Program-made: the position numbers and the translations under genes
Notes under the pieces: generated by a model
The model's database searches: none
Told to the model about the DNA's origin: nothing
The model's input: the letters and a program-made list of their open reading frames with translations, nothing else
Part shown: positions 12,858-40,427 of the stretch, piece after piece
How positions within the stretch are numbered: position 1 is the stretch's first letter
Layout of the letters: each line of letters opens with the position of its first letter
NCBI GenBank assembly: GCA_031371425.1
Contig: JANMJO010000109.1
Coordinates: 1-40,644, forward strand
Source of the DNA: Verrucomicrobiales bacterium
GTDB taxonomy: Bacteria; Verrucomicrobiota; Verrucomicrobiia; Limisphaerales; JAFMIX01
Direction of reading: 5' to 3'
DNA: 40,644 bases

Positions 12858-12931
12858 AATCCGCATTGCGAAACCCTCGCCGCGCAGGAATACTGCGTGC
12901 GGTGAAAATCAACCCTTCAATTTTGTAACTC

Positions 12932-13971: not shown

Positions 13972-14032
13972 CCACGGGCTAACGCTACGAGTCTTGGCCG
14001 AAGGATGGGCTGGCACACGGGGTGAAGAGAAA

Positions 14033-15898: not shown

Positions 15899-15899
15899 C

Positions 15900-16853: not shown

Positions 16854-16858
16854 CCCGC

Positions 16859-17662: not shown

Positions 17663-17714
17663 TTTCACCCGGTAATTGAATTTCAGCCAAACGACCCAAG
17701 CCCCACAAAATCTC

Positions 17715-20462: not shown

Positions 20463-20514
20463 TGATGGCGTTTTGAAAATAATCTTTGTGTCGCATTCAA
20501 TCACCATCCCAAAC

Positions 20515-20543
20515 TTGAAACAGCCGCTGAATTCGGCTATAAT
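20515..20543 (+). promoter_or_regulatory. Near-consensus sigma70 promoter for the surface-protein operon
   Basis: TTGAAA (20515-20520), 17 nt, TATAAT (20538-20543); ATG at 20556. Confidence 0.75.
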
Positions 20544-20555
20544 CTAGCGCTTTTT

Positions 20556-22439: not shown

Positions 22440-22450
22440 CAACCATTTCT

Positions 22451-25225
22451 ATGTTGAGAATATTTCAGAGATGCGGGTGGGTGCTGCTGTTGGCGGTGTG
22501 TTTGCCGTCGGCGCGGGCCTTTTCATTGTGGGGGCCGGTCGCCAACGGCGGGGACTCCTACCAGACGCCGGACATTGGTTATGGAACGTTGCCAATCTGT
22601 ATAGCCCCAGACAGCCTTTTTGTGGGAGCCCCGAAAAATCTGCACGAGGAATTTCGCATCAACGTCCCTACGCTGTATTATTCTTACGACAAAAATTTCC
22701 TGAACTATTTCGGTTCAAACGGCGTGGCGGCGGTTGATTCCGCCTTTTTGATGCTTTCAAATCATTTGAGCGGTGTCGCCCTCACGTCGCGCAGCGCCAG
22801 CCTTTCGGAATTTCCGTTCAACACAACGCGGGTGAATTACCGCGCCCAAGCGCTGCAAATGGAGGACATCAAGACCACCGTCGTGGGCGTGATGATGGAG
22901 CAGCTGGGGCTGGCGGACCCGGTCGAATGGGTCTGGGCGTTGCGCGAGCGCCATCTGCAGCCGAACCTGCCCTGTCCCAATTATATTTACAGCGTGCTCC
23001 AGCGGAATTTCGACCCGCTCACCCCGCAGCCTTCCAGATACATCAACGGGCGGCTCTACACATACCAGATTCTTCAGGGGGATTGTCTGACTTGTGACGA
23101 CGCGCTTGTATTAAATTTTCCCGCAGACCCGGGGCTGATCGGACTCGATCCCACGCCTGTGGCTTCCTTTGCGGATATTAGGGGTTTCGGCAGGCTCGTC
23201 ACCGGACTCACTCGTGACGACATGGGCGGCCTGCGCTACCTGATGAGCACGAATAATCTGAACGAGGAGGGCGTGGCCCCCGGCAGCACGATCATCAGCG
23301 GCGGCTTCACGAACAGGAACGTGACGCTCGTCGTGGAAACCGCAGACTTGAGTGTGCTGGCAAAGCTCGCCCTGACCAACGCACCCGGCGCGTTGCAGGC
23401 GCTCTATCCCAGTCTTGGCATCGCTTCCAGTTACGACTATCTGACGAATGTGGTCACCACCAACATCACCGTGATCACCCAGACCGTCAGGAGCGGAGCG
23501 TTCCAGATCATCACCAACACCGGCACGGTGTATCCCATCAGCACATTGGATCTAGCGATTTTTGCCCAAGCTTCAAAAACTAACTCCGCTGCGGCTCTCG
23601 AAGCATTGTATTCGGGATTGGTCGTCTCCAGCGAGGGGACGAACTATGTGCCTGCCGCGATCACCAACATCACGCCATATTTCTATGTGCCGCCTTATTC
23701 CGTGCCGCCGTTCATACCCGTGGTCGGATACACGACGAATTATTTTAATTATTTCGCCACCAACTATGTGCACACCTTCGCCAACGTCGTCACTAATTTC
23801 GCCACCAACCGCAGCGTTGTGATCTCGAACACGGTACGGTATTCCGCGCCGTGGGATTATGCGGGGACGATTTCCACGAATACCACCTCCCAAAAGCTGG
23901 TGACGACCAATCTGGCAGGTGACTTTTATATATTGCCGACCAATCTGTGCGGCTACGTGGTTTTGCAGACGCTGACCAATGTGATTACCACGACCAACCT
24001 TTTGGCGTCGGCGAGCACCAACAACGGAAATTTCTTTTCCGTGACCACCATCACTTATTTCACCAACCACCAGTTGTTGATACAGCCAATCACCTGCTAC
24101 GGCTACTTCACCAACTTCACCACGAACGTGACCAGGCAATACGGTTACGCCTTCGATAATGTGGTGACCAACTCCTTTTATCCCAACACCCCGGTCACCA
24201 TTCAGACCACCAACATCTATTCCTGCGGCCTGCCGGGATTGCTGTGCACCAACATCACCACCACCAACGCGATTTGGACTAACGTCGTCTCGGGCGATTT
24301 CTACCTGCTGCCGACCAACCAATGCGGCCTGTCCATCGTCCGAGTGCAACTGACCAACGTGGTGGCGACAACCAACCTCCAGTCCGTGGTCACGAACAGC
24401 AACGGCAGCGTCACCTATCAGGGCGCGATCACTTACTTCACGAACCACACGCTGGTAATCAACCCGGTGGATTGCGACGCGCCCGGCTTCACCAATGGGG
24501 TGGCGTTGCGGCAGGGCATTGACCGCATCCGTTTCGTGAGGCACGACTACGATTCTCTGATCGGAAACTTTTGGGGCTCGGTGACCAACGTCTATACCAA
24601 CGTCGCCGTGCAGGGCAACCAGCCCGTGCCGCAGATTTTCCGGCGCGTGATCAACAGCCCGGACATCCTCTTCACGATGCAAGATTTGTTGAAGGTGAGT
24701 TATACGCGGCCGGTGCTCAATTTTGACACGGGCCACGTTTTGCCGGGTCAGGCCGGGCCGGGCACGCGCACCCTGCCAATCACGATCACGTTCAATAACA
24801 TTTCTCCGCTGCTCGTGAACATCGGGCCGGACTTCGTGGATGAGCCGACGGCGACAACCAATTTTATCTGGGGCACGTTCGACACCACCACCAACGCGCC
24901 CATCGTGTATCCCACCGGCACGGACATCACCGCCTTGGAGAGCCAGATTTATATGCAGGTCACCACGGCCGCACTGACCGACGCCACCAACACGGTGGCT
25001 TACGGCCCGGTCACGTTGTCGGGTAGCGGCGGCACGCCACCCTACGTCTGGTCGCTGGCCTCGTCATCGCCGAGCGGTCTGCCGGCGGGACTTTCGATCT
25101 CGGCGGCGGGCGTGATTTCCGGCACTCCGGCGGCGGGGTCAGCCGGTGTTTATGACCTGACGGTTCAGATGGCGGATGCGGGCGGGCGGACGGTGTTCCG
25201 GGACTTTGTCCTGACCGTGCATTGA
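22451..25225 (+). CDS. Secreted Thr/Asn-rich protein with a degenerate matrixin-like N-domain, internal repeats and a C-terminal putative Ig domain
   Basis: Signal peptide (SARA-FS); two pairs of internal repeats; C-terminal GGTPPYVWSL..GLPAGLSI...GVISGTP..G.Y.LTV..D typical of He_PIG Ig domains. Confidence 0.82.
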   Translation: MLRIFQRCGWVLLLAVCLPSARAFSLWGPVANGGDSYQTPDIGYGTLPICIAPDSLFVGAPKNLHEEFRINVPTLYYSYDKNFLNYFGSNGVAAVDSAFLMLSNHLSGVALTSRSASLSEFPFNTTRVNYRAQALQMEDIKTTVVGVMMEQLGLADPVEWVWALRERHLQPNLPCPNYIYSVLQRNFDPLTPQPSRYINGRLYTYQILQGDCLTCDDALVLNFPADPGLIGLDPTPVASFADIRGFGRLVTGLTRDDMGGLRYLMSTNNLNEEGVAPGSTIISGGFTNRNVTLVVETADLSVLAKLALTNAPGALQALYPSLGIASSYDYLTNVVTTNITVITQTVRSGAFQIITNTGTVYPISTLDLAIFAQASKTNSAAALEALYSGLVVSSEGTNYVPAAITNITPYFYVPPYSVPPFIPVVGYTTNYFNYFATNYVHTFANVVTNFATNRSVVISNTVRYSAPWDYAGTISTNTTSQKLVTTNLAGDFYILPTNLCGYVVLQTLTNVITTTNLLASASTNNGNFFSVTTITYFTNHQLLIQPITCYGYFTNFTTNVTRQYGYAFDNVVTNSFYPNTPVTIQTTNIYSCGLPGLLCTNITTTNAIWTNVVSGDFYLLPTNQCGLSIVRVQLTNVVATTNLQSVVTNSNGSVTYQGAITYFTNHTLVINPVDCDAPGFTNGVALRQGIDRIRFVRHDYDSLIGNFWGSVTNVYTNVAVQGNQPVPQIFRRVINSPDILFTMQDLLKVSYTRPVLNFDTGHVLPGQAGPGTRTLPITITFNNISPLLVNIGPDFVDEPTATTNFIWGTFDTTTNAPIVYPTGTDITALESQIYMQVTTAALTDATNTVAYGPVTLSGSGGTPPYVWSLASSSPSGLPAGLSISAAGVISGTPAAGSAGVYDLTVQMADAGGRTVFRDFVLTVH

Positions 25226-25263
25226 TGCCCATGAACCGCAAAATTTCAAATCCACAAGACGTG

Positions 25264-28110
25264 ATGAAGCAATCAATTTTGACCATTCTGCTGGGCGTGG
25301 TGCTGGCGCAGGGCGCGTGGGGCACGAGCGCCCTGTATGAAAACCACGGCACCGTGTTGAGCCCGCCCGACACCGCGCCGCAGGTGGACGCGACTAATTT
25401 CCTCAACACCGGCGACTTCAGCATCAGCTTCGGTCTGCCGCAGCAGTTCATCACCGCCAACACGCGGAATTACACCAACACCGGCTCGATGACCGCGGAT
25501 TACGGATTTGATTTTGAGACCTATCTCGATACCGGCGACCCGTTCATGGCATCGAGCTTTTTCAACTCCGGCACGATCAACAGCGGGAGTGGTTTTGGTT
25601 TCGGGATCAGCTTTTTCGGCGGCGGATTGCAGACGATCATTTCCGCGACCAACCTCGACAATCCCGGCAACATCAACATGGATAACAACAGCACGCTCAA
25701 GATGAGCGGGCAGAAGGTGGACCTGACCCGCGGCCAGTTCATCATGGCCTCGCAGAATATCTTTTTTGGAAGCGACCCTTCGGTGTTCAGTCTGGACTAT
25801 GGCGTCGGCCAGTGCCCGGTCACCAACGGTTTGTCGTGGAATCCGAGCACCGCTTTGACCGCGTTTTTTGCTTCCTCGGCCATTTTCACCAACCACACGC
25901 GGTTACAGCAGAGCCTGTTTCTGACGGCGACACCGTATTTTGACGTGAAGCAAACTGGCCCGAGCAACTTTGTCATCCGTGGCGTTTTTCTCCAGAGCGC
26001 GAATTCCAACGTCACCACCACGGTCTTCCTCAATCAAAACTTCGGGCCCGGTCTTGGCCGCGGGAACATCGAATGGTCAGGGCCATATACCGATCCGCAG
26101 ACCGGCGTGATCACAACCAATTATTTTTATCTGGCGGACGTCATGGACAGGACGACGAATGCCTCCGGCATTCCGGACGGTTTCACGTTTGGCCAGAGCT
26201 TGGGCACATCCCTCTTCGCCGGTGTGCCGACTCTTGCCGGCATGGTGACCGTCCCCGGTGTGCCCGGCACGTTCCTTCCCGGCAACGTGACCAACACCTA
26301 TGCCTACACAAGTGTGCAGGCGCTGCCCACCTCCGTGAAGCCCTTCAGCAACACCGAAGTTTACCTGACCAATCTGGCAGGCCGGATTGAGATTTCCGCC
26401 ACCAGCAATCTGGACATGACGCTCGCGCAAATCACCGGCGCGAATTACATCTCCCTGCAAAGCCCCGTCCAGTTCAGCGGCAACATCGGCGCTCAGATCA
26501 GCGCGCCCTTCGCCAGCATCAACGTCGGCGTCACCAACGGAAACCTCACCGCCTCCAACCTCCTCTCCGCCTCGCTGCCGAAGTGGATTGGAACGGTCCA
26601 AGCCTGGAACACGCAGTGGTTCGCCACTGTCAATGGGACCAATCTGGATTACCGGATATTGCTGGTGAATAGCGACCTCGCCCCCAGTTCCGCCGCGCAG
26701 ACGGTGAATCTCGCGCTGCACACCACCACCAACCTCATCATCAGCGACGCCTATAACGTCATCAACAGTTTCACCACGGAAGCGCAGCGCCTCACGCTCA
26801 CGACCAACGGCTACGGCAACGGCGCGCAGTCGGTGGACGGCGAACTGAATCTGCAACCCGCGACCTTCTCCTGGGCGGCGGCGACGCCGAATCTGCGCTG
26901 GCTCACCAACTACGGCGCCATCCGCATCCCGAATACCGTGGTCCAGTCTTTCGGCAGCGGACAGCCCGGCGGAAGCTATCACGTCCTCATCAACAACGGC
27001 GTCATCGCGGATCAGGGCGCAACAGTTTGGGCCGACACCTTCGACAACGGCGGCATCTTCACCAACGGCGGCGGCGGCGGGTTCACACTCCATTCGCTGA
27101 ACGCGACCGTGACCAACGGCACCATCACCGCTGGCAGTGACATGTCCATCACCAGCAGCACGCTCATCACCAGCAACTCGGTCTTGCAGGCAAGCCGTTC
27201 GCTGACGCTGCGCGTGACGAACCTTCTGACCGATCTCGGCGCGGGCAACGGCAACCGCTGGTCGGTGGGCAACTCCAACGGCTCCGCAGCGTGCAGCCTC
27301 TCGCTGCCCATCAAACCCGTCGCTGGCGACTTGCTCGGAACAGTCATCACCAACACCGCGCCTGCCGCGACGAAGAAGTTCCCCACGTTTTGGGCCGGTG
27401 AGGATCGCGGCGTGACCGTGGCCGGCTTCACCAACAACGCCGCCATCGGCCGCTTGGTTCTGGATGCGCTCGGGCCGAACAGCCTCTTCACCTTCAGCGG
27501 CCCCGGAGTGACCAACGCGCTGTATGTGGACCGCTTGGAATTATTGAACTACGCCGCCAGCCACGACGGCTCCTACAATTTCCCCGGGTTGAGCCTCACG
27601 AACGTGGTGATTTATTACGCGCAGGCGGTAATCAGCGGCGTGTCCGTCGCGCAAAAGATGAACCACAAGAACAACGACCATTTGCGCTGGGTGGCCGGGT
27701 ATGCGGGCTTCTTCAGCTCCACCAATCTCGTCTATGGCGGCACGACCAACACCGTCAACGCCGCTCTCGCCCAGGACAAGGTGATTGACTCCGACGGCGA
27801 CGGCACGCCGAATTTTTACGATCCGACACCGTTCTTCCTGGCCAGCCAGGTGAATTTGTCCATCACGCTTACGAACACGCCCACTCCGGCGGCGCTGCTG
27901 CAATGGACGACCATTCCGCTGGCGACGAACTGCCTTTATTTCAAGACGAACCTGTCTTTGCCCGGCTGGCAACTGCTGACCAACTTCCCCTCCACGCCGC
28001 CGCTGCCCTACAACTCCCCGCCGGCCACAGTCAGCGTGTTGGATCTTTTGACCGGTGTGCCGCATTACTATCAGGTCATCGTGCAGCCGTGGCTGACGTA
28101 TCCGTATTAA
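25264..28110 (+). CDS. Secreted Thr/Asn-rich beta-strand (beta-helix-like) protein with a DxDGDG motif and C-terminal domain
   Basis: Signal peptide MKQSILTILLGVVLAQGAWG; FxNxGxI-type repeats; DSDGDGTPNFYDPTP; C-terminal LQW...LYFKTNL..PGW...YYQV. The ORF could start at 25222. Confidence 0.8.
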   Translation: MKQSILTILLGVVLAQGAWGTSALYENHGTVLSPPDTAPQVDATNFLNTGDFSISFGLPQQFITANTRNYTNTGSMTADYGFDFETYLDTGDPFMASSFFNSGTINSGSGFGFGISFFGGGLQTIISATNLDNPGNINMDNNSTLKMSGQKVDLTRGQFIMASQNIFFGSDPSVFSLDYGVGQCPVTNGLSWNPSTALTAFFASSAIFTNHTRLQQSLFLTATPYFDVKQTGPSNFVIRGVFLQSANSNVTTTVFLNQNFGPGLGRGNIEWSGPYTDPQTGVITTNYFYLADVMDRTTNASGIPDGFTFGQSLGTSLFAGVPTLAGMVTVPGVPGTFLPGNVTNTYAYTSVQALPTSVKPFSNTEVYLTNLAGRIEISATSNLDMTLAQITGANYISLQSPVQFSGNIGAQISAPFASINVGVTNGNLTASNLLSASLPKWIGTVQAWNTQWFATVNGTNLDYRILLVNSDLAPSSAAQTVNLALHTTTNLIISDAYNVINSFTTEAQRLTLTTNGYGNGAQSVDGELNLQPATFSWAAATPNLRWLTNYGAIRIPNTVVQSFGSGQPGGSYHVLINNGVIADQGATVWADTFDNGGIFTNGGGGGFTLHSLNATVTNGTITAGSDMSITSSTLITSNSVLQASRSLTLRVTNLLTDLGAGNGNRWSVGNSNGSAACSLSLPIKPVAGDLLGTVITNTAPAATKKFPTFWAGEDRGVTVAGFTNNAAIGRLVLDALGPNSLFTFSGPGVTNALYVDRLELLNYAASHDGSYNFPGLSLTNVVIYYAQAVISGVSVAQKMNHKNNDHLRWVAGYAGFFSSTNLVYGGTTNTVNAALAQDKVIDSDGDGTPNFYDPTPFFLASQVNLSITLTNTPTPAALLQWTTIPLATNCLYFKTNLSLPGWQLLTNFPSTPPLPYNSPPATVSVLDLLTGVPHYYQVIVQPWLTYPY

Positions 28111-28185
28111 TCTGGGACGAATAGCGAAATTTTTTAAACTGCAACCTGCGCAGCCATGCGGCGGCCGGGCGAACGGAGAAATATT

Positions 28186-31100
28186 GTGAAAGAAAAAATG
28201 AGATTTATCGGGTTGAGACTGCAAAGGCTCATCAGAGGCACGAGTGCGCTCATGGGGTCGCTGCTGGTGCTCGCGGGAATGACCGCCACCGCGTTCGGAC
28301 AGGCCGAGACAAAGATTTTGTTCGCCGCCAAGCCTACCATCGCGGACACCACCTACGAGTTCTACCTCATCAAGACCAACGGCACGGGACTGTTTCGCAT
28401 GACCATGGACGGCACGGATAAGATTTGCCCCGCAGTCTCGCCCGACAACACCACGCTGGCGTATCTCCGGAACGATTTGCCTGCGCCCAACATTGAGATC
28501 ATCCCGGTCAGTGGCGGTGCCCCTTACACCGTGCCCATTACGAATTATGCTTACGCGCTCCAATGGGGTGATAACCAGACGCTCTACTATCTTTCCCCCG
28601 ACGGTATTGCCAACGGCTATCGGCTTTGGAAGACCGATACCAACGGCAATGGTAACAGAGTTGTGTTCACCAATGTGCTCGATGATTTATTCGCGGCCTC
28701 CTATGCGTTCCATCTGGACCGCACGACGGGCAAGGCCTACATCCCCAACCTCAACCCCGCCATTGAGAGCCGGATTTATTATGGGACAGTCACATCAAAC
28801 CGTCTGACTGGTTTCATCCCCTTCACGACCACGCTGGGCGATGAATTCGATCCCGGCCTTTCCCCCGATGGCAACCGCATTGCGTTCGGCGCAGACGTCC
28901 TTTTCGATGGCGAGCAGGCGCTCTGGGTGGCCAACACCGCCGGCGGCGCCGCCGCCGCCATTGCGAACTCCAAGTATGCGGGCAATCCCGCGTGGATTGA
29001 CAACTCCACGCTCGTCTTCACCAAGGCTACCGCCTCGACCTTTGCCAACAGCTACTACGAGGGAAACATCGTCCGCGTCAAACAGAACGGCACTGGCATG
29101 TCATCGCTTACCTCTGGCACGGTCGTCTCCGGGCGCTGCGCCTTCCCATGTATCATCGTCACGACCAACGGCGCTCCCCCTCCGGGCGGCGACAATGATT
29201 ACTTCACCAACGCCATCGTCATTGAAGGACTTTCCGGGACGGTGGCCGGCACCAACACCGCCGCGACGCTGGAAGCTGGCGAACCCGACTTCATCAACGC
29301 CGATGATTTCTCCGGAGTGGACAAATCTATTTGGTATCAGTGGACGGCGCCAGCGAGCGGCGTGGTCTCCTTCGATACCTTCGGCAGCGGCTTTGACACG
29401 GTGCTCGCCGTTTATACGAACACGCCGGACATCGCCAACCTCGTGGCTGCGAACAATGACTATCTTTCCCTAATTGTTCCCCAGAGTTGGTTGACTTTCA
29501 CGGTGGTGGAAGGCACGACCTATTTTATTTCCGTCAACGGCAATAGCCTGCCGGCGCCGGGCTATTCCGATTCCGGCAATGTCATCCTCAACTGGCTGGA
29601 GACCGTGCCGAACATTGAGTCGGGCACATTCAAGTTCACGGCAGCCAATTATGTCGTGAGCGACAATGAATCCTTTTCACCATTTGACGCCAGTTTGTTC
29701 CCCAGCATCGTCGGTGCGCGGGTGACGGTGACCCGCACGAATGGTTTTAGCGGACGCGTGCTTGTTCCCTACACCGTGACCAATTACAGCACCTTCGCTT
29801 TCAGTAACAACGTAAGCGGAGTGCTGGTCTTTGACGACCACCAGATGAGCGCAGACATCATCGTGGATATTTTCAGTCTTCTGACAACTAACACCAGCAT
29901 AGGGACGAACCCTCCCATTACCCTTGCGGCTCCGGGGACAATTGACGTCACGCTGGATACGCCGACTTTGGATCTGCTGGAATCGACCGATTTGCTTCCG
30001 CCGGTTCTGACTGTGGTGACGAATACGCAAGTAACCGTAGTAAGCGCCGTGTATCCGCCCAGCGAGGTTGACCGCGCCGCTTCGCTGCCTTATTTCAACA
30101 TTGAACGGGCCACATTTCGTACGCCTGAAGGAAATATCGGCGCCACAATTCTTGTGTATCCCAGTCGCGCTCCTTCCGGTGGCTCTACATATACGCTTAA
30201 TTACGCCGTGGATCATCACGTCTCTTTGACCGATCTCCTCGGTCCAAACAATACGTTCACACTTCAGGCCGGTTCTGATTATGCCACGCCGACCACCGAT
30301 TTCACTGATGTCACCAGCGGCACTCTGACGTGGGAATCCGGCGATGGTTTTCCGAAGGAAATCAACCTTCCCATCGCCCAAGATAGCAACCCAGAATTCA
30401 ATGAGGACTTTGAAATTGAGCTGTATAATCCATTGGATATAAGCACCGCTCCTCCTACGGTGCTTGCGCTCGGTCAGGTGAACACGGCCACCATGACCAT
30501 CCTCTTTGACGACCAGCCCGCCGGCGCGGTGGATCGGACTTGGAATGTGGAAGGCACCTCCTCCTCCGTTCCGCCGAACCTGACTTATCCCGGCACACAG
30601 GGCGGCGTGAGCGACAGCGCCAACGGCAACGGCGGCACCGTCTATGCCACCGCAGTCCAACCGGACGGGAAGTCTATCGTCGCAGGCAGCTTCATCGCGT
30701 TCGACTCGAACCCCTACAACCGCATCGTGCGGTTGCTGAACAACGGCTATCAGGACGCAACCTTCCTCGCCGCGCCGAACAGCGGTGCGAATGACTTCAT
30801 CGCCGCGCTCGCCTTGCAGCCGGACGGCAAGATACTCATCGGCGGCGCGTTCACCTCCTTCAACGGCGCGAACCGCTACCACATCGCCCGGCTGAACGCC
30901 AACGGTTCGGTGGACAACGCCTTCAATCCCGGCCTCGGCGTGAATGGCATGGTGTGGGCGCTCGCTCGGCAGGCCAACGGCAAGATTGTCATCGCCGGCG
31001 AGTTCACCTCGGTGAACGGCACCAACTGCAACTCCGTTGCACGCCTGAACGCGAACGGCTCTTTGGACACCAGCTTCAACCCGGGCGTGGGCCCGAACGG

Positions 31101-34100
31101 AATCGTGAAAGCGGTGGCGGTGGATGGCGCGGGGCGGGTTTCCATCGGCGGTTATTTCACCCGCGTGGCCGGTTTGGTGCGCGGCGGCGTGGCGCGGCTG
31201 AATGCGGATGGCACGTTGGACGCGAGCTTTGATCCCGGCATCGGCAACTACAACCCGGACACCGGCAACACGGACCCGGTCAACGCGCTGGCCTTGCAGT
31301 CCGATGGCAAACTGCTGGCGGGCGGCTCCTTCGCGTATGTCCAGTTGAACCCCATCAACGGCATCGCTCGCTTCAATACGGACGGCACGGTGGACACCAG
31401 CTTCAGCACCGGCGGCAGCGTCAATGGCACTCACAACCCCGTTATCGGCGTGGCCGACAGTGTCAACGCGATCACTTTGCAAACCGACGGGACGATTTTG
31501 ATTGGCGGCGATTTCATCAGCATCAACCAGACGCGTCGCGTGGGCATCGCGCGGTTGTTCGGCGATGGCAGTGTGGACACGACCTTCATGGACACGGCCT
31601 ACAACCAGTTCGCCGGCGTGATCAACCACTATCACAATCCCGACGCCGTGAACCTTTTGGATTATCCACAGGGCAACCACCGTAATTCCATCAACGCCAT
31701 CGCAGTCGAGCCAGGGACGAACAGCAACGTCATTATCGGCGGCAACTTCTTGGTCGTCGGCGGTGGTTCATTTGCTCATTCCGGATTTTTGGCGCGCGAT
31801 GGAGACTCCGGAATCGTGGACAATGGACGCATGGACATTCATCCGCGCAGCAACGTGGCGCGGCTTATCGGCAGTGGCACGCCCGGCCCCGGCAACATCG
31901 AGTTTTCCTACGACGCCTACTCCGTCGGCAAGAGCGATGGCTCGCTCTACGTCTCGCTCGTCCGCACCAACGGCAGCCTCGGCATCATCGGGGCGTCGCT
32001 CTCCGCGCCGCCCGGACCGGACGGCCAACCGGGCATCGCCAACATCCCTGCCGATTTCACGACGGGAAATTCAGAGCCTACCTGGAACACCCGTTGGTCC
32101 ACCCCCGGCTGGATGAAAAGCGATTGTTACTTTGGCCCGAACTACAACCTGACGCTGGGTGACTCCACGCCCGGCGTTGGCTCCGGCGTCATTTTTGGCA
32201 TCAGCAACAACGGCAACATCACCGGCAACCTGAATGCGAATCTGGCGTTGGCTGCGCCCAAGCCCTTCGACTTCTTCCTCGGCGGCGAACTGATTCCGCT
32301 GGGCGTGGCGATGGGCGCGAAGCAGGCGTCAGCGCTGACGATCATTGATCCCAACTTTAAGGCGGGCACATTCGGTTTCAGCGCGGCGGCCTACACCGTC
32401 AATCAAAGTTCCAACGCCGTCACCATCACCGTCACGCGCACCAACGGCAACCACGGCGCCGTGCAGATCAGCTACGCCACCTTCAACGGCACGGCCACCA
32501 GCCCCGCCAACTACACCGCCGTGGGCGGCACCCTGACCTTCAACCAAGGCGACATCAGCAAGAGCTTCACCGTGCCGATCATCCCTAGCACCGTCAACCA
32601 GCCCGACAAGACCGTTAACCTCCGACTCTTTGGCATCACCGGCGGCGGCCAGACCGGGCTGACCAACGCCGTGCTCACCATCGTGAACAACGTCTTCGGC
32701 GCAGGCCACATCACCTTCGCCTTCCCCACCAACACCGCGAGCGAGACCGCCGGCACCGCCCCCATCGTCCTCAACCGCCTCGGCGCTGGCAGTGGCACGC
32801 TCGATGTCACCATGATCTCCAGCGACATCACCGCCACCAACGGCGTGAACTATGTGCGTTCGACCAACGTCGTCCATTGGAACAACCTCGATGTCTCCCC
32901 CAAGACCGTCAATGTCACCGTCCTTCACGACGGCAATTTCACCCCCAGCCTGACCGTCAAACTCCGGCTCACGAACGGCCTGGTCAATAATTTAGCCAAC
33001 GCGAACGTCTTGGGTCTCTCCACCCTCACCAACTCTACACTCGTCATCGCCAACGCGGATTTCCCCGGCACCGTGCAGTTCACCGCCGCCGCTTACTCCG
33101 TCAAAAAATACGGCGGCTTCGCTCTCATCCCCGTCATCCGCACCGGCGGCAGCGCCGGCACAGTGACCGTGGACTACACCACCGTGAACGGCACCGCCTC
33201 AAGCCCCGCCAACTACACCGCCACCAACGGCGTCCTGACCTTCGCCGCCGGCGAGGTGAGCAAATACATCAAGGTCCCCATCATAGACGACGGCAGCGGC
33301 GCGGGTCTGCAGGCGCTCGGCGTGACTTTGAGCAACGCCTTGCCCGCCTCCGCCCTCGGCAGCATCAGCAACACCGTCCTCAACATCATTGACTCCGCCA
33401 CCGTCAACGAGCCGCCCGGTTCGGAAGACGTCACCTACAGCCCGCTCTCCGGGTTTAACGGCAACGTCTTCACCCTCGCGCTACAGGTGAACAACCAACT
33501 CCTCGTCGGCGGCGAATTCACCATGGCCAACGGCGTCCCCCGCCAGCACCTCGCGCGCCTCAACGAAAACGGCACCCTCGACGCCACGTTCGGCTTGCCC
33601 TCCTCCTCCATGGTCGCCAACGACTCCGTCCGCACGCTCGCCATCCAGACCGATGGCCGCATCTTGGTCGGCGGCCATTTCACCACCTTCAACAACATCG
33701 CCCGCAGCCGCATCGCGCGGCTCAACTACGATGGCTCGCTCGACAGCCTCTTTGATCCCGGCTCCGGCGCGGACAATCCCGTGTTCGCGCTCGGCGAAAC
33801 TTTTGTGAACGGCGCGCGGAAAGTCATCATCGGCGGCGCGTTTGCCCGCCTCAACGGTGTGACTTTCAATAGCATTGGCCGGCTCAACGACGACGGCACG
33901 CCCGACACCACCTTCAACCCCGCCGGTCTGGGCGCGAACTCCACCGTGTATGCCCTCGCGGTGCAGACGGACGGAAAAATCATCATCGGCGGCGACTTCA
34001 CCGCCGTCAACGGCACCGCCCTGAACCACATCGCCCGCTTGAACGCGGATGGTTCGGTGGATAACACCTTCACCAACGCCGTCGCCAACGCCGCCGCGGG

Positions 34101-37100
34101 GGCGAACGATTCCGTGCGCGCCATCAGTCTCCAGCTCGATGGCAGCATCCTCATCGGCGGCCTGTTCACCAGCGTGAACGGCACCCCGCGCAGCCACATC
34201 GCCCGCCTCAACAGCGCCGACGGCTCGCTCGACAACACCTTCAACCCCGGCGCCGGGCTGGATGACGCGGTGCTCGCGATTTCATTGCAGGCGGATGGAC
34301 GCATCGTGCTGGGCGGGACATTCACCCATTGCAACGGCGTCAGTCGCAATCGCCTCACGCGGCTGAACCCCGATGGCTCGGTGGACCCGACCATCAACTT
34401 CGGCACCGGAGCTGACGCGTATGTGGGCGCCGTCGTGGTGCAGAAGGGAACGATCGTGGGTTATCCTCCCACCGTGCCGGACGAAAAGATCATCATCGGC
34501 GGCGGGTTCACCCATTACAACGGCGCGGCGCACGATCATCTGGCGCGGATTTACGGCGGGTCCATCGGCGGCTCGGGCGCGTTCGAGTTCTCCATGCCCG
34601 ACTATCAGGCGGATGAGAACGCCACGAACGTATTCATCACCGTCATCCGCACGGGCGGCACGAGCGGCACGAATGCGGACGGCTCTGGAAATATCCTCGT
34701 GCACTTCACCACCGCCAACGGCACGGCGCAGGCGGGAACGAATTATACTGCGGTGGACACCTACCTTGTTTTCCCCGCCGGCGAAGTGCAGCAGACACTG
34801 GCCGTGGCGGTCATGGACGACTTCATCATCACGCCGAACCTGACGGTCAATCTGGACATTGTCCCGCAGTTGCCCGCCACCCCCGGCTACCAACCGACCG
34901 CAGTGCTGACCATCGTCAACACCGACAGCGCGATTCAATTCACTTCGGCCACGTACCAAGTGCCCAAGAACGTCATCAACAGCCTCGCCCAGATTGGCGT
35001 CGTCCGCGCCGGCAGTTCGGTCGGCACCGCCACGGTGGTCTTCAACACCACCACCAACGGCACCGCGTTGGTGGGCACGGATTACCAGCCGCGCACCAAC
35101 ATACTCATCACCTTCGCCCCCGGCGTCACACAGCAGATCGTGACCGTGCCGGTCGTCAACAACAACCTCCCCGAAGGCAACCAGACTGTGACCATGACAT
35201 TGAGCAATGTCTTCGGCTCGCTCCTCTCTGCGCCGTCGAACGCCGTGCTGACCATCATTGATACCGTCAATGCGCCCGGCCAGTTCCTTTTCTCCGCCAC
35301 CAATTACAACGTCAGCGAAGGCGGCGGCGTGGGCTTCACCAGCACGGCCATCACCGTGCTCCGCACGAACGGCGCGACAGGGATTGTCACCGTCCACTAC
35401 GCCACCACCAACGGCACGGCAGCGGCAGGGATTAAATACATCGCCACCTCCGGCGTGCTGACTTTCGGCGATGGCGAAATAAGCAAGACCTTCACCGTCC
35501 CCGTGTTCAACACCGCCACCATCGAATCCAATCAGAACTTCTTCGTGTCCTTGTTCACCACCTCGGGTGGCGCGGGCCTCACCGCCCCGACGAATGCCAT
35601 GGTCACGATTCTCAACACGAACGCCGGCATCATTTTCGCCGCAGCCACAAACACGTTCAACGAAAACGCCGGCGTGGCTCTCATCAATGTCGTCCGCTAC
35701 AACAACACCCACGGCATCGCCACGGTGAACTACGGCACCACCAACGGCACGGCGCAGGCGGGCGTGAACTTTTTCGCCACCAGCGGCACACTCACCTTCA
35801 ACGATGGCGCGTCTCTGGCGTCCATCACCGTCCCGCTGATTTACAACACGAACGTCACTGGCAACCTGACCTTCAATGTGGGTCTCTCCAGCCCCAGCGC
35901 GGGCACGCAGGTCGGAAACCCCGGCGTCACCAGCATCGTGCTGCGCGATGTGGATGCGGGCTTGAGCTTCACCACCTCCAGCGTCTCCGTCCTCAAGAAC
36001 GCCGGCAGCCTCGTCATCCCCGTCATCCGCTCCGCCACAAACTCCGGGCTGGTCACTGTGGATTACACCACCCAGGACGGCACGGCGCAGGCCGGAGTTG
36101 ATTACACGTTCACGCACGGCACGCTGGTGTTCAGCAATGGCGTCGCCACGAACACCTTCACCGTGCCCATCAGCAACAACGGCCTCGTGAACGGCGACCA
36201 CGCGTTCACCGTGAAGTTGTCCAACCCCTCCGGCACTGGCCGCATCGTTTCGCCGAGCACCGAGACGGTGACGATCATTGACAGCAACCCCGGCCTCCGT
36301 TTCTCCAGCCCCACCTACAGCGTGTTCAAGACCGGCGGTCAGGCCATCATCAACGTCCAACGCATTGACTTTACCAACACCGTGACTTCGGTGAATTACC
36401 TCGTCACCAACGGCACCGCCATCGCGGGCACGCACTTCATCTCCAGCAGCGGCACGCTCGTCTTCACCAACGGCGTCACCAACCAATCCTTCACCGTGGC
36501 AATCATCGGCACCACCACCGTCCAGCCCGACTTGGTGGTGCTGCTGGAATTGAGCAGCCCCGTCAACGGCATCCTCATTCCGCCGAGTGCGGCCACGCTG
36601 ACCATTCATGACGACACCGGCAGCTACGTCATCCCCGCCGGCGCCGCTATGGTTTCCGAGTCGGGTGCGGGCGCGCCCAACGACATCATTGATTCCAACG
36701 AGACCGTCACCGTGCAGTTCGCCTTACGCGTCGCGGGCGGCACGAACGTAGCCAACCTGATCGCCACGCTGCTCCCCGGCGGCGGCGGCGTGACGCCGGT
36801 CAACCCGGTCACGGCCACCTACGGCGCGCTGGCGTATCGCGGTCACTCGGTCTCGCGGCCGTTCACCTTCATGGCGCAAGGCACGAACACGCAGCAGATC
36901 ACCGCCACGTTCCGGCTTCAGAACGGAGTGAACGACATCGGCAACGCGATCTTCGGCTTCACAATCGGCAGCTCGGCGAGATCGTTCTCGAACACCGCCG
37001 CCATCACGATCTTCGACAACGCTGCGGCCTCGCCGTATCCGTCCATCATCAACGTCAGCGGCGTGGGCGGCACGCTGATCAAGGCCACGGTGACGCTCAC

Positions 37101-37329
37101 CAACTTGAGCCACACCTCGCCGGCGGATATCCGGGCGCTGGTGGTTTCACCGGCGGCGTTGAACACGTTGTTCATGGCGCACGCCGGCGGCAATAACGCG
37201 GTGACGAACATCACGCTGACGTTCGACGATGCGGCGGCCAGTTCGCTATCGCAGATCAACCGTCTGACCACGAGCACCAACAAGCCGACGCAGTGGTTTA
37301 TGACACCCAACCCGCCGCCTTTCCCCTGA
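28186..37329 (+). CDS. Giant (~3050 aa) secreted surface protein/adhesin: TolB-like propeller, PPC-like domain, multiple Calx-beta domains, two delta-60 (DUF5122) repeat clusters, partial P-domain
   Basis: GTG 28186 follows GGAG (ATG 28198 is an alternative); PxxSPDG repeats; SIWYQWTAP..FDTVLAVYT; ALQxDGKILIGGxF..IARLNxDGSxDxxF repeats (~30520-31870 and ~33410-34560); FSxxxYxVxE..VxRxxG..GTA..Y..GTLTF modules. Confidence 0.9.
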   Translation: MKEKMRFIGLRLQRLIRGTSALMGSLLVLAGMTATAFGQAETKILFAAKPTIADTTYEFYLIKTNGTGLFRMTMDGTDKICPAVSPDNTTLAYLRNDLPAPNIEIIPVSGGAPYTVPITNYAYALQWGDNQTLYYLSPDGIANGYRLWKTDTNGNGNRVVFTNVLDDLFAASYAFHLDRTTGKAYIPNLNPAIESRIYYGTVTSNRLTGFIPFTTTLGDEFDPGLSPDGNRIAFGADVLFDGEQALWVANTAGGAAAAIANSKYAGNPAWIDNSTLVFTKATASTFANSYYEGNIVRVKQNGTGMSSLTSGTVVSGRCAFPCIIVTTNGAPPPGGDNDYFTNAIVIEGLSGTVAGTNTAATLEAGEPDFINADDFSGVDKSIWYQWTAPASGVVSFDTFGSGFDTVLAVYTNTPDIANLVAANNDYLSLIVPQSWLTFTVVEGTTYFISVNGNSLPAPGYSDSGNVILNWLETVPNIESGTFKFTAANYVVSDNESFSPFDASLFPSIVGARVTVTRTNGFSGRVLVPYTVTNYSTFAFSNNVSGVLVFDDHQMSADIIVDIFSLLTTNTSIGTNPPITLAAPGTIDVTLDTPTLDLLESTDLLPPVLTVVTNTQVTVVSAVYPPSEVDRAASLPYFNIERATFRTPEGNIGATILVYPSRAPSGGSTYTLNYAVDHHVSLTDLLGPNNTFTLQAGSDYATPTTDFTDVTSGTLTWESGDGFPKEINLPIAQDSNPEFNEDFEIELYNPLDISTAPPTVLALGQVNTATMTILFDDQPAGAVDRTWNVEGTSSSVPPNLTYPGTQGGVSDSANGNGGTVYATAVQPDGKSIVAGSFIAFDSNPYNRIVRLLNNGYQDATFLAAPNSGANDFIAALALQPDGKILIGGAFTSFNGANRYHIARLNANGSVDNAFNPGLGVNGMVWALARQANGKIVIAGEFTSVNGTNCNSVARLNANGSLDTSFNPGVGPNGIVKAVAVDGAGRVSIGGYFTRVAGLVRGGVARLNADGTLDASFDPGIGNYNPDTGNTDPVNALALQSDGKLLAGGSFAYVQLNPINGIARFNTDGTVDTSFSTGGSVNGTHNPVIGVADSVNAITLQTDGTILIGGDFISINQTRRVGIARLFGDGSVDTTFMDTAYNQFAGVINHYHNPDAVNLLDYPQGNHRNSINAIAVEPGTNSNVIIGGNFLVVGGGSFAHSGFLARDGDSGIVDNGRMDIHPRSNVARLIGSGTPGPGNIEFSYDAYSVGKSDGSLYVSLVRTNGSLGIIGASLSAPPGPDGQPGIANIPADFTTGNSEPTWNTRWSTPGWMKSDCYFGPNYNLTLGDSTPGVGSGVIFGISNNGNITGNLNANLALAAPKPFDFFLGGELIPLGVAMGAKQASALTIIDPNFKAGTFGFSAAAYTVNQSSNAVTITVTRTNGNHGAVQISYATFNGTATSPANYTAVGGTLTFNQGDISKSFTVPIIPSTVNQPDKTVNLRLFGITGGGQTGLTNAVLTIVNNVFGAGHITFAFPTNTASETAGTAPIVLNRLGAGSGTLDVTMISSDITATNGVNYVRSTNVVHWNNLDVSPKTVNVTVLHDGNFTPSLTVKLRLTNGLVNNLANANVLGLSTLTNSTLVIANADFPGTVQFTAAAYSVKKYGGFALIPVIRTGGSAGTVTVDYTTVNGTASSPANYTATNGVLTFAAGEVSKYIKVPIIDDGSGAGLQALGVTLSNALPASALGSISNTVLNIIDSATVNEPPGSEDVTYSPLSGFNGNVFTLALQVNNQLLVGGEFTMANGVPRQHLARLNENGTLDATFGLPSSSMVANDSVRTLAIQTDGRILVGGHFTTFNNIARSRIARLNYDGSLDSLFDPGSGADNPVFALGETFVNGARKVIIGGAFARLNGVTFNSIGRLNDDGTPDTTFNPAGLGANSTVYALAVQTDGKIIIGGDFTAVNGTALNHIARLNADGSVDNTFTNAVANAAAGANDSVRAISLQLDGSILIGGLFTSVNGTPRSHIARLNSADGSLDNTFNPGAGLDDAVLAISLQADGRIVLGGTFTHCNGVSRNRLTRLNPDGSVDPTINFGTGADAYVGAVVVQKGTIVGYPPTVPDEKIIIGGGFTHYNGAAHDHLARIYGGSIGGSGAFEFSMPDYQADENATNVFITVIRTGGTSGTNADGSGNILVHFTTANGTAQAGTNYTAVDTYLVFPAGEVQQTLAVAVMDDFIITPNLTVNLDIVPQLPATPGYQPTAVLTIVNTDSAIQFTSATYQVPKNVINSLAQIGVVRAGSSVGTATVVFNTTTNGTALVGTDYQPRTNILITFAPGVTQQIVTVPVVNNNLPEGNQTVTMTLSNVFGSLLSAPSNAVLTIIDTVNAPGQFLFSATNYNVSEGGGVGFTSTAITVLRTNGATGIVTVHYATTNGTAAAGIKYIATSGVLTFGDGEISKTFTVPVFNTATIESNQNFFVSLFTTSGGAGLTAPTNAMVTILNTNAGIIFAAATNTFNENAGVALINVVRYNNTHGIATVNYGTTNGTAQAGVNFFATSGTLTFNDGASLASITVPLIYNTNVTGNLTFNVGLSSPSAGTQVGNPGVTSIVLRDVDAGLSFTTSSVSVLKNAGSLVIPVIRSATNSGLVTVDYTTQDGTAQAGVDYTFTHGTLVFSNGVATNTFTVPISNNGLVNGDHAFTVKLSNPSGTGRIVSPSTETVTIIDSNPGLRFSSPTYSVFKTGGQAIINVQRIDFTNTVTSVNYLVTNGTAIAGTHFISSSGTLVFTNGVTNQSFTVAIIGTTTVQPDLVVLLELSSPVNGILIPPSAATLTIHDDTGSYVIPAGAAMVSESGAGAPNDIIDSNETVTVQFALRVAGGTNVANLIATLLPGGGGVTPVNPVTATYGALAYRGHSVSRPFTFMAQGTNTQQITATFRLQNGVNDIGNAIFGFTIGSSARSFSNTAAITIFDNAAASPYPSIINVSGVGGTLIKATVTLTNLSHTSPADIRALVVSPAALNTLFMAHAGGNNAVTNITLTFDDAAASSLSQINRLTTSTNKPTQWFMTPNPPPFP

Positions 37330-37357
37330 TGGCTGGCGAATTGAACGAGAGATTTTT

Positions 37358-39823
37358 ATGAACAAGACGTTTTTGAAAAAGGGATTCAGTCTGCTGGCGG
37401 TCGCAGGCTTGGTCTGGCCGGCTGCCGCCGTGAGTGTGGCGCGCAGGCAGCTCCCCGGCCACGTGCCAGCGGCGGTGGCGAACTTGTCCGTGTCCAGCCA
37501 TCTGGCGGCTACGAACCAGATCAACCTGGCCATCGGCCTGCCGTTGCGGAACACCACGGCGCTGACCAATCTGATGGGGGAGATTTACGATTCCGCCAGT
37601 CCGAAATACCGCCAGTATCTGACGCCGGAAGAATTCACCGCGCAGTTCGGGCCGACCGAGCAGGAGTATCAGGCGGTCAAAGATTTCGCGGCGGCCAACA
37701 GCTTCACCGTCACCGCCACGCACGCCAACCGCATGCTCGTCGAGGTCCGTGGTTCGGCGGCGGATGTGGAGCGCGCCTTCAACGTTCAGCTGAACAAGTA
37801 TCCCCATCCGACGGAAAGCCGGGAGTTTTTCGCGCCCGCCACCGCGCCGTCCGTGCCGGCGTCATTGGCGGTTTTGGATGTGACGGGCTTGAGCGATTTT
37901 CCGCGCCCCACGCCCAGGATCAAACTGGGTGGTTACACTTCCGCTTCGCCCAAGACCGGCTCCGGTCCCGGCGGCTTGCTGATGGGTTATGATTATCGCA
38001 ATGCGTATGTGCCGGGGACGACCTTGACCGGCGTGGGGCAGAAGGTGGCGTTTGTGCAGTTCGACGGATATTTCGCGAGCGACATCGCCCTGTATGCGCA
38101 GCAGTCCGGCTTGCCAGCGCCGGTGCTGACGAACATTTTGATAAACGGGTTCAGCGGCATTCCCACCCTGACCGGCGGCGAAGGTGAAGTGACACTGGAT
38201 CTGGAGATGACGATGTCCATGGCGCCGAATCTGGACATGATGCTGGTCTATGAAGGTGATCCATTTAACTTCAGCCCGAATGCCGTCCTGAACCGGATCG
38301 CTGCGGACAATGCAGCCCGGCAGGTGAGTTGTTCGTGGGGTTGGACCGGCGGGCCGACGGCGACGACCGAGCAGATTTTCCTGCAGATGATTCTTCAGGG
38401 GCAGGCGTTCTTGAACGCTTCCGGCGACTGGGATTCTTCATATCCCGGCTGGATGGAAGACCCGAATTTCGTCGGCTATCCATCGGGCAGCGCCAATATC
38501 GTGCAGGTCGGCGGCACCACATTGACCACCGGCGCGGGCGCGGCGTATGTTTCGGAAACGGTGTGGACTTCCACTGATCCGTATTTTTATCGCGGCGTGC
38601 AGATTGGCGAATTGGGAAGTTCGGGCGGCATCAGCAGCGTCGTCCCCCTTCCGATCTGGCAGCAGGGCATCGCCAACTCCAGCAACAACGCCTCGGCCAC
38701 GTTCCGGAATGTCCCCGATGTCTCCATGCCCGCCGACGGGATCAACATCGTTCTCTACGGCGCCAATCAAAACACCGGCGGCACCAGCGCCTCGGCGCCA
38801 TTGTGGGCGGGCTATCTGGCGCTCGTGAACCAGCAGGCGGTTGCGCAGGGAAAACCCACCGTCGGTTTCCCAAACCCCTCCCTCTACTCCATCGCCAAGA
38901 CGGCCAGCTACAACAGTTGTTTCTATGACATCACCAACGGCAACAACGCTTGGGTGAGCTACCCGACCAATTATTTCGCCGTCGGCGGCTACGACCTTTG
39001 CACCGGCCTCGGCTCTCCAAAAGGCGTGACCCTCATTAACGCTTTGGTCAATGGCACCAACACCGCGCTCATCATTTCCGCACCGTTGCCGCTCTGGGGC
39101 ACCAACCTCGCCGCCCTGAACGGCAGCAACCCCAACGGCGCGTGGTTGCTCTTCGTGCAGGACGACGCGCTCTTTGACTCCGGCTCCATCGCCAAAGGCT
39201 GGCAGCTCAACCTCACCACCGCCAACCCCGTCGGTGCCGCCGCCGACTTGGAACTCACCATGACCAGCCCGGCCACCAACATTCTGGGCAACGGAAATCT
39301 CACCTACGTCATCGCCGTCACCAACTACGGCCCGTCCGCTTGCGCCAGCAATGCCGTCATCACCATCACACTCCCCGCTGCCGCCACATTCCTTTCCGCC
39401 ATTCCCACCAAAGGATTCGTCAGCACCCTCGCTGGCATAAGTCTGACTTGGAACGCCGGACCCTTGGCCGTCAGCGCCGCCGCCAAGCTCACGCTCACCT
39501 TGCGCGCTACCGGCATCGGCAGCTACGCCAACACCGCCCACGTGGATTCCACCACCACCACCGACCCGAATCCTGACGACGACACCGCCACCGTGACCAT
39601 CAACGCCATCACGACGCCGCAATTGTCAGGCTTCCTCATCCCCGGCGGCGACGGACGCTTCCGGCTCTCCATGACAAATGAGATTTCCGGGTCGGTCATC
39701 ATCCAGGCATCCACCAACCTGTTCAACTGGGTAAATATTTCCACCAACACCCTGCCGTTCATCTACACCAACGGCTACACCACGAACTACTCCGCCCGCT
39801 TCTACCGCGCAGTCCTGCCGTAG
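37358..39823 (+). CDS. Secreted sedolisin (peptidase S53) with pro-domain, partial P-domain, DUF11 and C-terminal domain
   Basis: Pro-kumamolisin YLTPEEFTAQFGPT; catalytic EVTLD (Glu/Asp), ASGD oxyanion Asp, GGTSASAP (Ser), GYDLCTGLGSP; DUF11 ADLELT..LTYVIAVTNYGPS; C-terminal IQASTNLFNW...RFYRA. Confidence 0.93.
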   Translation: MNKTFLKKGFSLLAVAGLVWPAAAVSVARRQLPGHVPAAVANLSVSSHLAATNQINLAIGLPLRNTTALTNLMGEIYDSASPKYRQYLTPEEFTAQFGPTEQEYQAVKDFAAANSFTVTATHANRMLVEVRGSAADVERAFNVQLNKYPHPTESREFFAPATAPSVPASLAVLDVTGLSDFPRPTPRIKLGGYTSASPKTGSGPGGLLMGYDYRNAYVPGTTLTGVGQKVAFVQFDGYFASDIALYAQQSGLPAPVLTNILINGFSGIPTLTGGEGEVTLDLEMTMSMAPNLDMMLVYEGDPFNFSPNAVLNRIAADNAARQVSCSWGWTGGPTATTEQIFLQMILQGQAFLNASGDWDSSYPGWMEDPNFVGYPSGSANIVQVGGTTLTTGAGAAYVSETVWTSTDPYFYRGVQIGELGSSGGISSVVPLPIWQQGIANSSNNASATFRNVPDVSMPADGINIVLYGANQNTGGTSASAPLWAGYLALVNQQAVAQGKPTVGFPNPSLYSIAKTASYNSCFYDITNGNNAWVSYPTNYFAVGGYDLCTGLGSPKGVTLINALVNGTNTALIISAPLPLWGTNLAALNGSNPNGAWLLFVQDDALFDSGSIAKGWQLNLTTANPVGAAADLELTMTSPATNILGNGNLTYVIAVTNYGPSACASNAVITITLPAAATFLSAIPTKGFVSTLAGISLTWNAGPLAVSAAAKLTLTLRATGIGSYANTAHVDSTTTTDPNPDDDTATVTINAITTPQLSGFLIPGGDGRFRLSMTNEISGSVIIQASTNLFNWVNISTNTLPFIYTNGYTTNYSARFYRAVLP

Positions 39824-39844
39824 CAGCAAATTCCTCCAACACCG

Positions 39845-40423
39845 GTGAAAGTCCTTGGCTTAACTGGCGGCATCGGGATGGGCAAATCCACCACCGCCGA
39901 CTGGTTGCAAGACCACGGCGTCCCCGTCATAGACACGGACGAACTCGCCCGCCAACTCGTTCAGCCCGGCGAACCCGCGCTCGCCGAAATCCAATCCGCC
40001 TTCGGCCAGACCATCGTCGGCGCAGACGGCCTGCTCCGCCGCGACGCGCTCGCCCAACTCGTCTTCGCCGATGAAGTCGCGCGAAAAAAACTCGAAGCCA
40101 TTCTCCACCCTCGCATCCGCGAACGCTGGCTCGCGCAGCTCGCAGAGTGGCGCGCCGCCGGCCGCTCGGCGGCAGTCGTCGTCATACCCTTGCTCTACGA
40201 AACCAAGGCCGAATCGAACTTCGACCAGATCCTCTGCGTCGCCTGCTCCGCCGCCACGCAGCGCGAGCGGTTGTTTGCCCGGGGCTGGACTGCGGATGAA
40301 ATCAGCCGGCGCAACGCCGCCCAATGGCCTGTGGAAAAGAAAATGGCACTCGCCCACCGCATCATCTGGACCGAGGGCGAACCGGACGTGATGGCCGCGC
40401 AACTGGCGCGGGTCATCGCCTGA
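39845..40423 (+). CDS. coaE: Dephospho-CoA kinase
   Basis: GLTGGIGMGKST, IDTDELAR, LEAILHPRIR, IPLLYE. Confidence 0.95.
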   Translation: MKVLGLTGGIGMGKSTTADWLQDHGVPVIDTDELARQLVQPGEPALAEIQSAFGQTIVGADGLLRRDALAQLVFADEVARKKLEAILHPRIRERWLAQLAEWRAAGRSAAVVVIPLLYETKAESNFDQILCVACSAATQRERLFARGWTADEISRRNAAQWPVEKKMALAHRIIWTEGEPDVMAAQLARVIA

Positions 40424-40427
40424 ACGC

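Follow-up and report, generated by a model that had tools for sequence, protein, structure and literature searches.

The window analysed here, 40,644 nucleotides from a Verrucomicrobiales bacterium, corresponds to contig C102 (40.6 kb) in its entirety; the metagenome-assembled genome (MAG) to which it belongs has 335 contigs and is 94% complete. Towards its right end lie two adjacent genes on the plus strand, the first for a giant secreted protein and the second for a sedolisin (S53 protease), and one P_proprotein-type domain (P-domain, Pfam PF01483) is divided between them, with its N-terminal part (N-part) closing the giant and its C-terminal part (C-part) following the catalytic domain of the sedolisin. 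This gene pair, its distribution and the possible assembly of its products are described below. The features of the pair are:

28156 to 37329, plus strand: giant secreted protein, 3057 aa, open reading frame (ORF) intact, with a signal-peptide-like segment at its N-terminus (judged by eye)
36952 to 37326, plus strand: N-part of the split P-domain, the last 125 aa of the giant, ending ..PPPFP; profile positions 1–115, E 8e-42
37327 to 37329, plus strand: TGA stop of the giant
37327 to 37357, plus strand: this TGA with the 28-nt spacer; 78% identity with the locus of the sister species G003 over 37320–37383
37358 to 39823, plus strand: sedolisin (S53) gene, 821 aa, ATG at 37358; signal peptide, prodomain, catalytic domain, C-part, DUF11 and C-terminal domain
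37358 to 37441, plus strand: sedolisin signal peptide, ~aa 1–28, cleavage site judged by eye
37384 to 39097, plus strand: payload cassette without DNA similarity to the orthologous locus of G003, covering the sedolisin pro- and catalytic domains
37490 to 37900, plus strand: Pro-kumamolisin activation domain (PF09286), aa 45–181, E 5.5e-28
37955 to 39058, plus strand: S53 catalytic domain, ~aa 200–567
39077 to 39235, plus strand: C-part of the split P-domain, aa 574–626, placed by profiles and alignment
39245 to 39601, plus strand: DUF11 domain, aa 630–748, E 4.7e-20
39620 to 39820, plus strand: C-terminal beta domain, ending ..RFYRAVLP

A preliminary description of the window, made from its letters and ORFs, had quoted peptides of a divided domain at 36982–37329 and 39077–39220, and these are the tail of the giant and residues 574–621 of the sedolisin. 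It was also correct that both ORFs are intact with a 28-nt gap between the TGA and the ATG, and that the giant has no C-terminal domain, which is encoded together with DUF11 by the next gene. The giant carries 12 DUF5122 beta-propeller stretches and nine Calx-beta stretches, has no DUF11, and retains the invariant H and P columns in its N-part. The sedolisin belongs to family S53 by its activation domain and its full-length catalytic domain. Residues 62–547 of the 552 in the kumamolisin chain 1t1e align end to end with sedolisin residues 78–567, and as this alignment stops five residues before the chain end, the catalytic domain is complete at ~567, with no room for an N-part in the sedolisin. 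E277, D281, D357 and S477 are invariant across 59 family sequences and align with the kumamolisin motifs; we take them to be the catalytic Glu, Asp and Ser and the oxyanion Asp positions of S53 enzymes, and the sedolisin is apparently active. The last ~70 aa match no Pfam or NCBIfam family, including the sorting families of the type IX secretion system C-terminal domain and PEP-CTERM, and the nearest Atlas clusters are unnamed and come from Verrucomicrobiota.

The two pieces had been taken in the preliminary description for the non-overlapping N- and C-parts of one P-type domain, and an alignment with 12 intact domains bears this out. The giant ends at the '..FP' column, the sedolisin piece begins in the next columns ('xAP..PY/W-G'), and the fragments jointly cover one whole P-domain with neither overlap nor gap. 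A search of the single fragments with the P_proprotein hidden Markov model, also proposed at that stage, succeeded only in part: the C-part alone matched profile positions 48–86 of 86 weakly (15.2 bits, E 0.024, below the gathering cut-off of 21 bits), and the N-part alone gave no PF01483 match at E ≤ 10. Five intact relatives score above the cut-off (26.1–32.8 bits) as two stretches each, their Pfam match being split in two by an insertion between profile positions ~41 and 51. It is thus homology to intact relatives, and not Pfam on the pieces, that decides that the pieces are halves of one domain. Among loci from 40 related genomes, 41 of the 44 distinct N-part matches are followed by a C-part in the same ORF; the remaining three are the split locus of G003, a match cut by the end of its locus, and one odd case in genome G016. 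In this last case (L041, contig C8) the N-part lies inside a long ORF; the sequence after it is proline-rich and unrelated, without a recognisable C-part, and this may be another kind of truncated P-domain.

An unsplit paralogue is present in the same genome, an S8 subtilase in a 1285-aa open frame on the minus strand of contig C273, which has in order an S8 domain, a pre-P-domain module as in the giant, an intact contiguous P-domain and DUF11. This paralogue shows the placement after an S8 domain that characterises the kexin/furin architecture; the split domain does not, as it follows Calx-beta modules on one side and an S53 domain on the other. Only two other C-part matches were found in the genome, both weak, in small PEP-CTERM proteins on contigs C254 (25973–26635, minus strand, 221 aa) and C7 (2–502, minus strand, partial, 167 aa), where a P-type domain is followed by a PEP-CTERM-like 'VPEP' anchor. 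As extra partners for the giant these two proteins are ruled out by the whole, divergent P-domain that each possesses.

Comparison of orthologous loci, another check that had been suggested, recovered both fused and split forms with a conserved breakpoint (eight of eight genomes, 52 metagenome loci and G003). Among 401 genomes of the order, nine further sedolisins with the full architecture were detected, from two other families. In all eight with upstream sequence an orthologue of the giant lies upstream (46–60% identity over ~450 aa) and ends with the N-part, FP and TGA. The distance from the stop to the first ATG is 5 nt in seven of these genomes and 6 nt in one, compared with 28 nt in the window, and such tight spacing of the two genes suggests coupled expression. 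Furthermore, metagenome contigs of the Joint Genome Institute (JGI) were scanned with an alignment of the tail (C-part, DUF11 and C-terminal domain), from which 80 loci were kept, three fused and 77 split. The upstream ORF ends with the N-part, FP and a stop in 52 split loci (TGA in 45, TAA in seven), the contig ends before the upstream gene in 23, a truncated partner is visible by eye in one (L215), and one with a GH30-like head (L235) shows 14 upstream codons ending in FP-stop. No split metagenome locus with enough upstream sequence had a different end to its upstream gene. The split gene pair is old and widely inherited; its ..FP-stop breakpoint is unchanged across three or more families of the order. 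In a large protein database 376 proteins match the tail at E ≤ 1e-10; more than 100 of them are sedolisins of ~800–860 aa (45–53% identity, 92–100% coverage, most 95–100%), and others have M6 or reprolysin-like heads, with source names including Limisphaerales and Verrucomicrobiota. A full-text search of the literature returned no description of a split P-domain, of sedolisin-DUF11 proteins or of these giant proteins in the titles and abstract openings of its hits.

The locus of the sister species G003, a MAG of the same genus, lies on contig C466. An ORF end there is 58% identical to the tail of the giant (E 8e-38) and terminates in the same column (..SFP, TGA). Next come a similar spacer, with 24 nt to the first ATG and a second in-frame stop, and a homologous signal peptide. 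The enzyme attached to it, 726 aa long, is a zinc metalloprotease of reprolysin-like type that also has a pre-peptidase-type domain, and this is followed by C-part, DUF11 and C-terminal domain, the tail being 50% identical to that of the sedolisin in a tail-only search. At the DNA level the window and G003 align over 36991–37188, 37320–37383 (78%) and 39098–40424 (69%, including coaE), and nothing aligns between 37383 and 39098. As the flanks align and the middle does not, G003 represents the orthologous locus with its enzyme module replaced. A translocation model, in which the rest of the sedolisin would have been left downstream, was rejected, since coaE begins 21 nt past the sedolisin stop and is syntenic in G003.

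The payload types found before the tail are a sedolisin, a reprolysin-like metalloprotease, an M6 metalloprotease, a GH30-like hydrolase, or none. In the payload-less genes at L193 and L237 a signal peptide like that of the window, homologous also to that of the G003 metalloprotease, is joined directly to C-part, DUF11 and C-terminal domain; in both loci the giant upstream closes with ..FP-stop. L193 and L209 share 98% DNA identity from the start of the C-part onward, with a sedolisin before the C-part in L209 and none in L193. L235, on a JGI contig, has a GH30/GH59-like glycoside hydrolase head in the place of the protease. In a FastTree phylogeny of the tails the non-S53 payloads are scattered, which, with no support values read, is a rough indication of repeated swaps. 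Judged by the sequences compared, the constant parts are the giant with its N-part, the stop, the spacer, the signal peptide and the C-part-DUF11-C-terminal tail, and the enzyme is exchangeable. Since payload-less genes exist, signal peptide and tail form a chassis of their own, and the sedolisin need not have caused the split.

To what extent the halves could assemble was addressed by structure prediction. An AlphaFold2 monomer model of the sedolisin, built from a 59-sequence alignment, reached a mean predicted local distance difference test score (pLDDT) of 81.3, with the catalytic, DUF11 and C-terminal domains folded; residues 568–626, which include the C-part, were the only unfolded stretch (pLDDT 33–35). 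The halves were co-folded as separate chains of 125 aa and 58 aa, each with its own custom unpaired alignment. An interface between the tail of the giant and the C-part, which the preliminary description had anticipated, was predicted with a score of 0.90 (runs 0.87–0.91), against 0.00 for the best of three controls. The models have ~300 contacts and a partner pLDDT of at least 83, and runs agree in at least 98% of contacts. The C-part is modelled at pLDDT 83–85 in the co-fold, compared with 36–56 for the halves with unrelated partners, and in the closest contacts its two long strands lie between strands of the N-part. In a calibration, 58 of 80 solved complexes and two of 110 mismatched pairs scored at or above the mark, counts that are only rough for custom alignments. 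In the models, each half appears to fold only with the other, as in donor-strand-type complementation.

The P-domain beta-sandwich fold was recognised in a fused relative rather than in the two-chain model. A natural fused domain (G320) was modelled at pLDDT 92, and a Foldseek comparison with the PDB placed the P-domains of furin, Kex2 and Aeromonas ASP at the top (E from 3e-5, probability 1.00, TM-score ~0.5 on the query); a profile search of PDB sequences gave only a weak ASP match (E 0.016). In this model the break falls in a long loop, past eight strands and ahead of a short helix and the last three strands. Reassembly by beta-strand complementation, as put forward in the preliminary description, would be the best-supported mechanism, given the conservation of the halves, the C-part predicted to be disordered in the monomer, and the co-fold.

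Upstream of the pair lies a cluster of genes on the same strand, with these members:

13994 to 28110, plus strand: upstream cluster with a PilM-like gene (13994–15898), two unassigned ORFs, a secretin gene (17676–20462) and three large proteins
20556 to 22439, plus strand: first large protein, fn3-like
22451 to 25225, plus strand: second large protein, He_PIG
25222 to 28110, plus strand: third large protein

All five other carriers tested have a secretin orthologue (46–54% identity in its best piece) on the contig and strand of the enzyme gene; its near end lies 17–20 kb upstream of that gene, and the window agrees with them in this. A PEP-CTERM/exosortase-type block (8813–13894), immediately upstream of the PilM and secretin genes, contains an exosortase EpsH (9613–10581) and a DUF3485 protein (10278–11306) amid WecG-type and sugar transferases and an epimerase. 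Housekeeping genes flank the cluster (FtsK 209–3013, Dus 6415–7659 and CoaE 39845–40423).

The conserved synteny with PilM and secretin genes could also mean that the halves meet only in passing. The tail protein would then be an adaptor for export or quality control which hands the giant over to the secretin, with no permanent tether, and payload-less tail genes agree with this in that carriage of an enzyme would not be the essential role. The predicted interface is deeply interdigitated, with its many contacts, which argues for a stable complex instead, and we regard a transient adaptor as unlikely.

A different possibility is that nothing assembles at all, and that an old rearrangement cut off the tail and left a tolerated relic, with the N-part as a stub devoid of function and the C-part as a flexible linker from enzyme to DUF11. 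The single pieces are sub-threshold or unmatched in Pfam, the C-part is disordered and linker-like in the monomer model, and the binding of the halves is predicted. However, a C-terminal stub could be lost by any earlier stop, yet ~115 profile positions and the same FP-stop have been kept in the 52 metagenome loci, the eight genomes of two other families, the window and G003. Sequence constraint, taken as mean pairwise identity among nine giant/sedolisin pairs, points the same way. In the giant it is 57% just upstream of the N-part and 56% in the N-part, which is hence conserved like the rest of the protein. In the sedolisin it is 56% in the prodomain, 61% in the catalytic domain, 46% in the linker, 65% in the C-part, 45% in DUF11 and 43% in the C-terminal domain, the C-part being the best-conserved segment. 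All columns invariant in intact domains, including the core residues, are retained in both halves, and on these alignments both halves are under constraint. A relic is accordingly quite improbable in our view.

The preliminary description also explained how the pair arose, namely by insertion of a signal-peptide-bearing sedolisin into an ancestral adhesin gene, the tail of which it took over. Unsplit relatives do exist: in G247 (at least 2849 aa), G320 and G396 the giant runs through the break (..FP-AP..) and bears DUF11 and the C-terminal domain itself. An insertion specific to this genome, with the sedolisin as its cause, was not upheld. A recent and local insertion would account for the seamless junction, for the fused relatives, and for the presence in G022 of a sedolisin gene after an intact-tailed large protein. 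Against it, the same pair and breakpoint occur in three families and 52 metagenome loci with varying payloads, and the signal peptide and spacer are common to loci with other payloads or none. Furthermore, the nine split forms group together as a single clade (support 97/96) in a maximum-likelihood phylogeny built from the 430 aa that precede the break, and the three fused forms branch outside it, which fits one old split. We consider a local insertion very improbable. The arrangement in G022 (L012/L051, contig C244) recurs at L070, L071 and L073, where the P-DUF11-C-terminal tail of a large protein is intact and the sedolisin encoded by the gene after it bears either a different tail or an intact P-domain of its own; such a neighbourhood could have preceded the split.

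Recoding by read-through or frameshift would yield a single giant-enzyme fusion, so that the domain would not be split at the protein level. The stop is TGA in 45 of 52 metagenome pairs and in all 10 genome loci, and one locus, L061, has its first ATG in frame at 6 nt from the stop. The spacers of 5 nt (seven loci), 6 nt, 24 nt with a second in-frame stop (G003) and 28 nt (window) place the genes in different frames, however, and seven pairs have TAA. The downstream proteins also have their own signal peptides, and a fusion would place signal peptide and prodomain inside the domain. The chance of recoding is slim indeed.

An assembly chimera, conceivable in a 335-contig MAG with repeated P/DUF11 modules that could mislead assemblers, can be put aside almost entirely, because both junctions are spanned by contigs assembled from other samples and from a second study, and more than 60 independent loci are alike. 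At least half of the sequence words sampled from 36900–39400 are present in seven public runs from two studies; one of these runs may be the source. The stop/start junction is bridged by contigs of all four other runs (two studies), and the junction of catalytic domain and C-part in three of the four, with X7 breaking at 39044/39053. The split is a real arrangement, and not, as would have spoken against the preliminary description, unique to this assembly.

The contigs of the other runs also differ from the window in places. Single contigs (X7 and X3; 90% likeness) match it only from 37338 and 39046 onward and are unlike it before. These positions are both borders of the enzyme module, a hint, at most, of variants with other flanks there. 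One X2 contig leaves the window sequence after 37292, and its alternative sequence again ends ..TTTCCCTGATG. At position 36777 contigs of all four other runs have three bases fewer, an in-frame indel in the giant gene.

The interpretation that we favour, and hold to be likely, is that the two genes are a conserved split-domain docking unit within a secretin gene cluster. The giant ends with the first five-eighths of a P_proprotein-type beta-sandwich, and the next gene encodes a signal peptide, an exchangeable enzyme payload, the last three strands, DUF11 and the C-terminal domain. Each protein would be exported by its own signal peptide. The halves are predicted to be unfolded alone and to rebuild the domain when the C-part strands insert between the N-part strands, and enzyme and DUF11/C-terminal tail would thereby be joined tightly and non-covalently to the C-terminus of the giant, this tail being the one that unsplit relatives bear on the giant itself. 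Once assembled, the pair would probably pass to the secretin system encoded upstream, as the conserved synteny suggests. We infer the physical assembly, the place where it would occur and the role of the tail. Whether the system works as a natural plug-and-socket in this order of Verrucomicrobiota we judge to be evenly balanced: the socket would be the N-part of the secretin-associated giant and the plug the C-part on the small tail protein, which also bears the DUF11/C-terminal anchor module, with S53, M12B-like, M6, GH30-like or no enzyme repeatedly swapped in behind the signal peptide and ahead of the plug, and reconstitution after export would anchor and arm the giant.

Several points weigh against this interpretation. 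The structural support for assembly is entirely predicted; the co-fold may score high through likeness to solved intact P-domains and would then indicate compatibility and not binding, and with unpaired alignments its score carries nothing on partner specificity. Pairing with an N-part was seen for S53, reprolysin-like and payload-less genes only. No M6-headed locus with upstream sequence was found, and the GH30-like locus shows only its 14 upstream codons. A contig scan with the M6-headed protein P0020 gave no split M6 locus; the 80 loci kept belong to M6 relatives whose P-domain is intact or whose tail is of another kind. As the downstream start codons are putative, the spacing of 5 nt is counted only as far as the first ATG. 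The C-terminal domain matches no family, hence an anchoring or sorting role of the tail is putative.

If the halves do assemble, what was a folded domain now serves as a connector between molecules and has persisted as such in at least three bacterial families. The continued anchoring or sorting of a 3000-residue protein deprived of its own tail would then be explained, and bacteria would have a simple route to exchange the enzyme of a surface scaffold, the exchange boundaries being visible in the DNA (window against G003, L193 against L209). It would also be a new class of protein–protein docking and perhaps the equivalent in nature of engineered split-domain tags, the compact pair (~125 aa and ~50 aa) being a candidate ligation-free coupling tag. 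As neither half is recognised by Pfam alone, standard annotation pipelines do not see that the two genes are linked.

The likeness to the P-domains of furin, Kex2 and Aeromonas sobria ASP (PF01483) consists in the Pfam match of intact relatives and in the modelled fold. In contrast to these, the domain here spans two genes, with the cut in a long loop; it has a long insertion at profile positions ~41–51, and stands after Calx-beta modules or S53, metalloprotease or GH30-like heads rather than after an S8 catalytic domain. With the S53 enzyme kumamolisin the sedolisin shares prodomain and catalytic domain, and the half P-domain, DUF11 and C-terminal tail are extra. Cohesin–dockerin systems, in which interchangeable secreted enzymes share a module that attaches them to a large surface scaffoldin, may be similar in outline, although no cohesin or dockerin Pfam domain is present in the giant or the sedolisin; here a fold would be reconstituted instead of two folded modules binding, with one site per giant instead of many. 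In chaperone–usher pili, donor-strand complementation joins pilins which lack one strand and polymerise via chaperone and usher. By analogy, an incomplete secreted beta-sandwich would here be completed after Sec export by strands of another polypeptide in a very stable, non-covalent link, with the difference that three strands (~50 aa) are donated, apparently 1:1 between two different proteins, and that fold and families are unrelated. Naturally split inteins, and other genes split within a domain, also encode one domain in two genes, with halves that are disordered alone and fold on association. The P-domain would resemble them as a single domain from two genes, but has no splicing chemistry, both of its halves are secreted, and its apparent role is docking rather than ligation.

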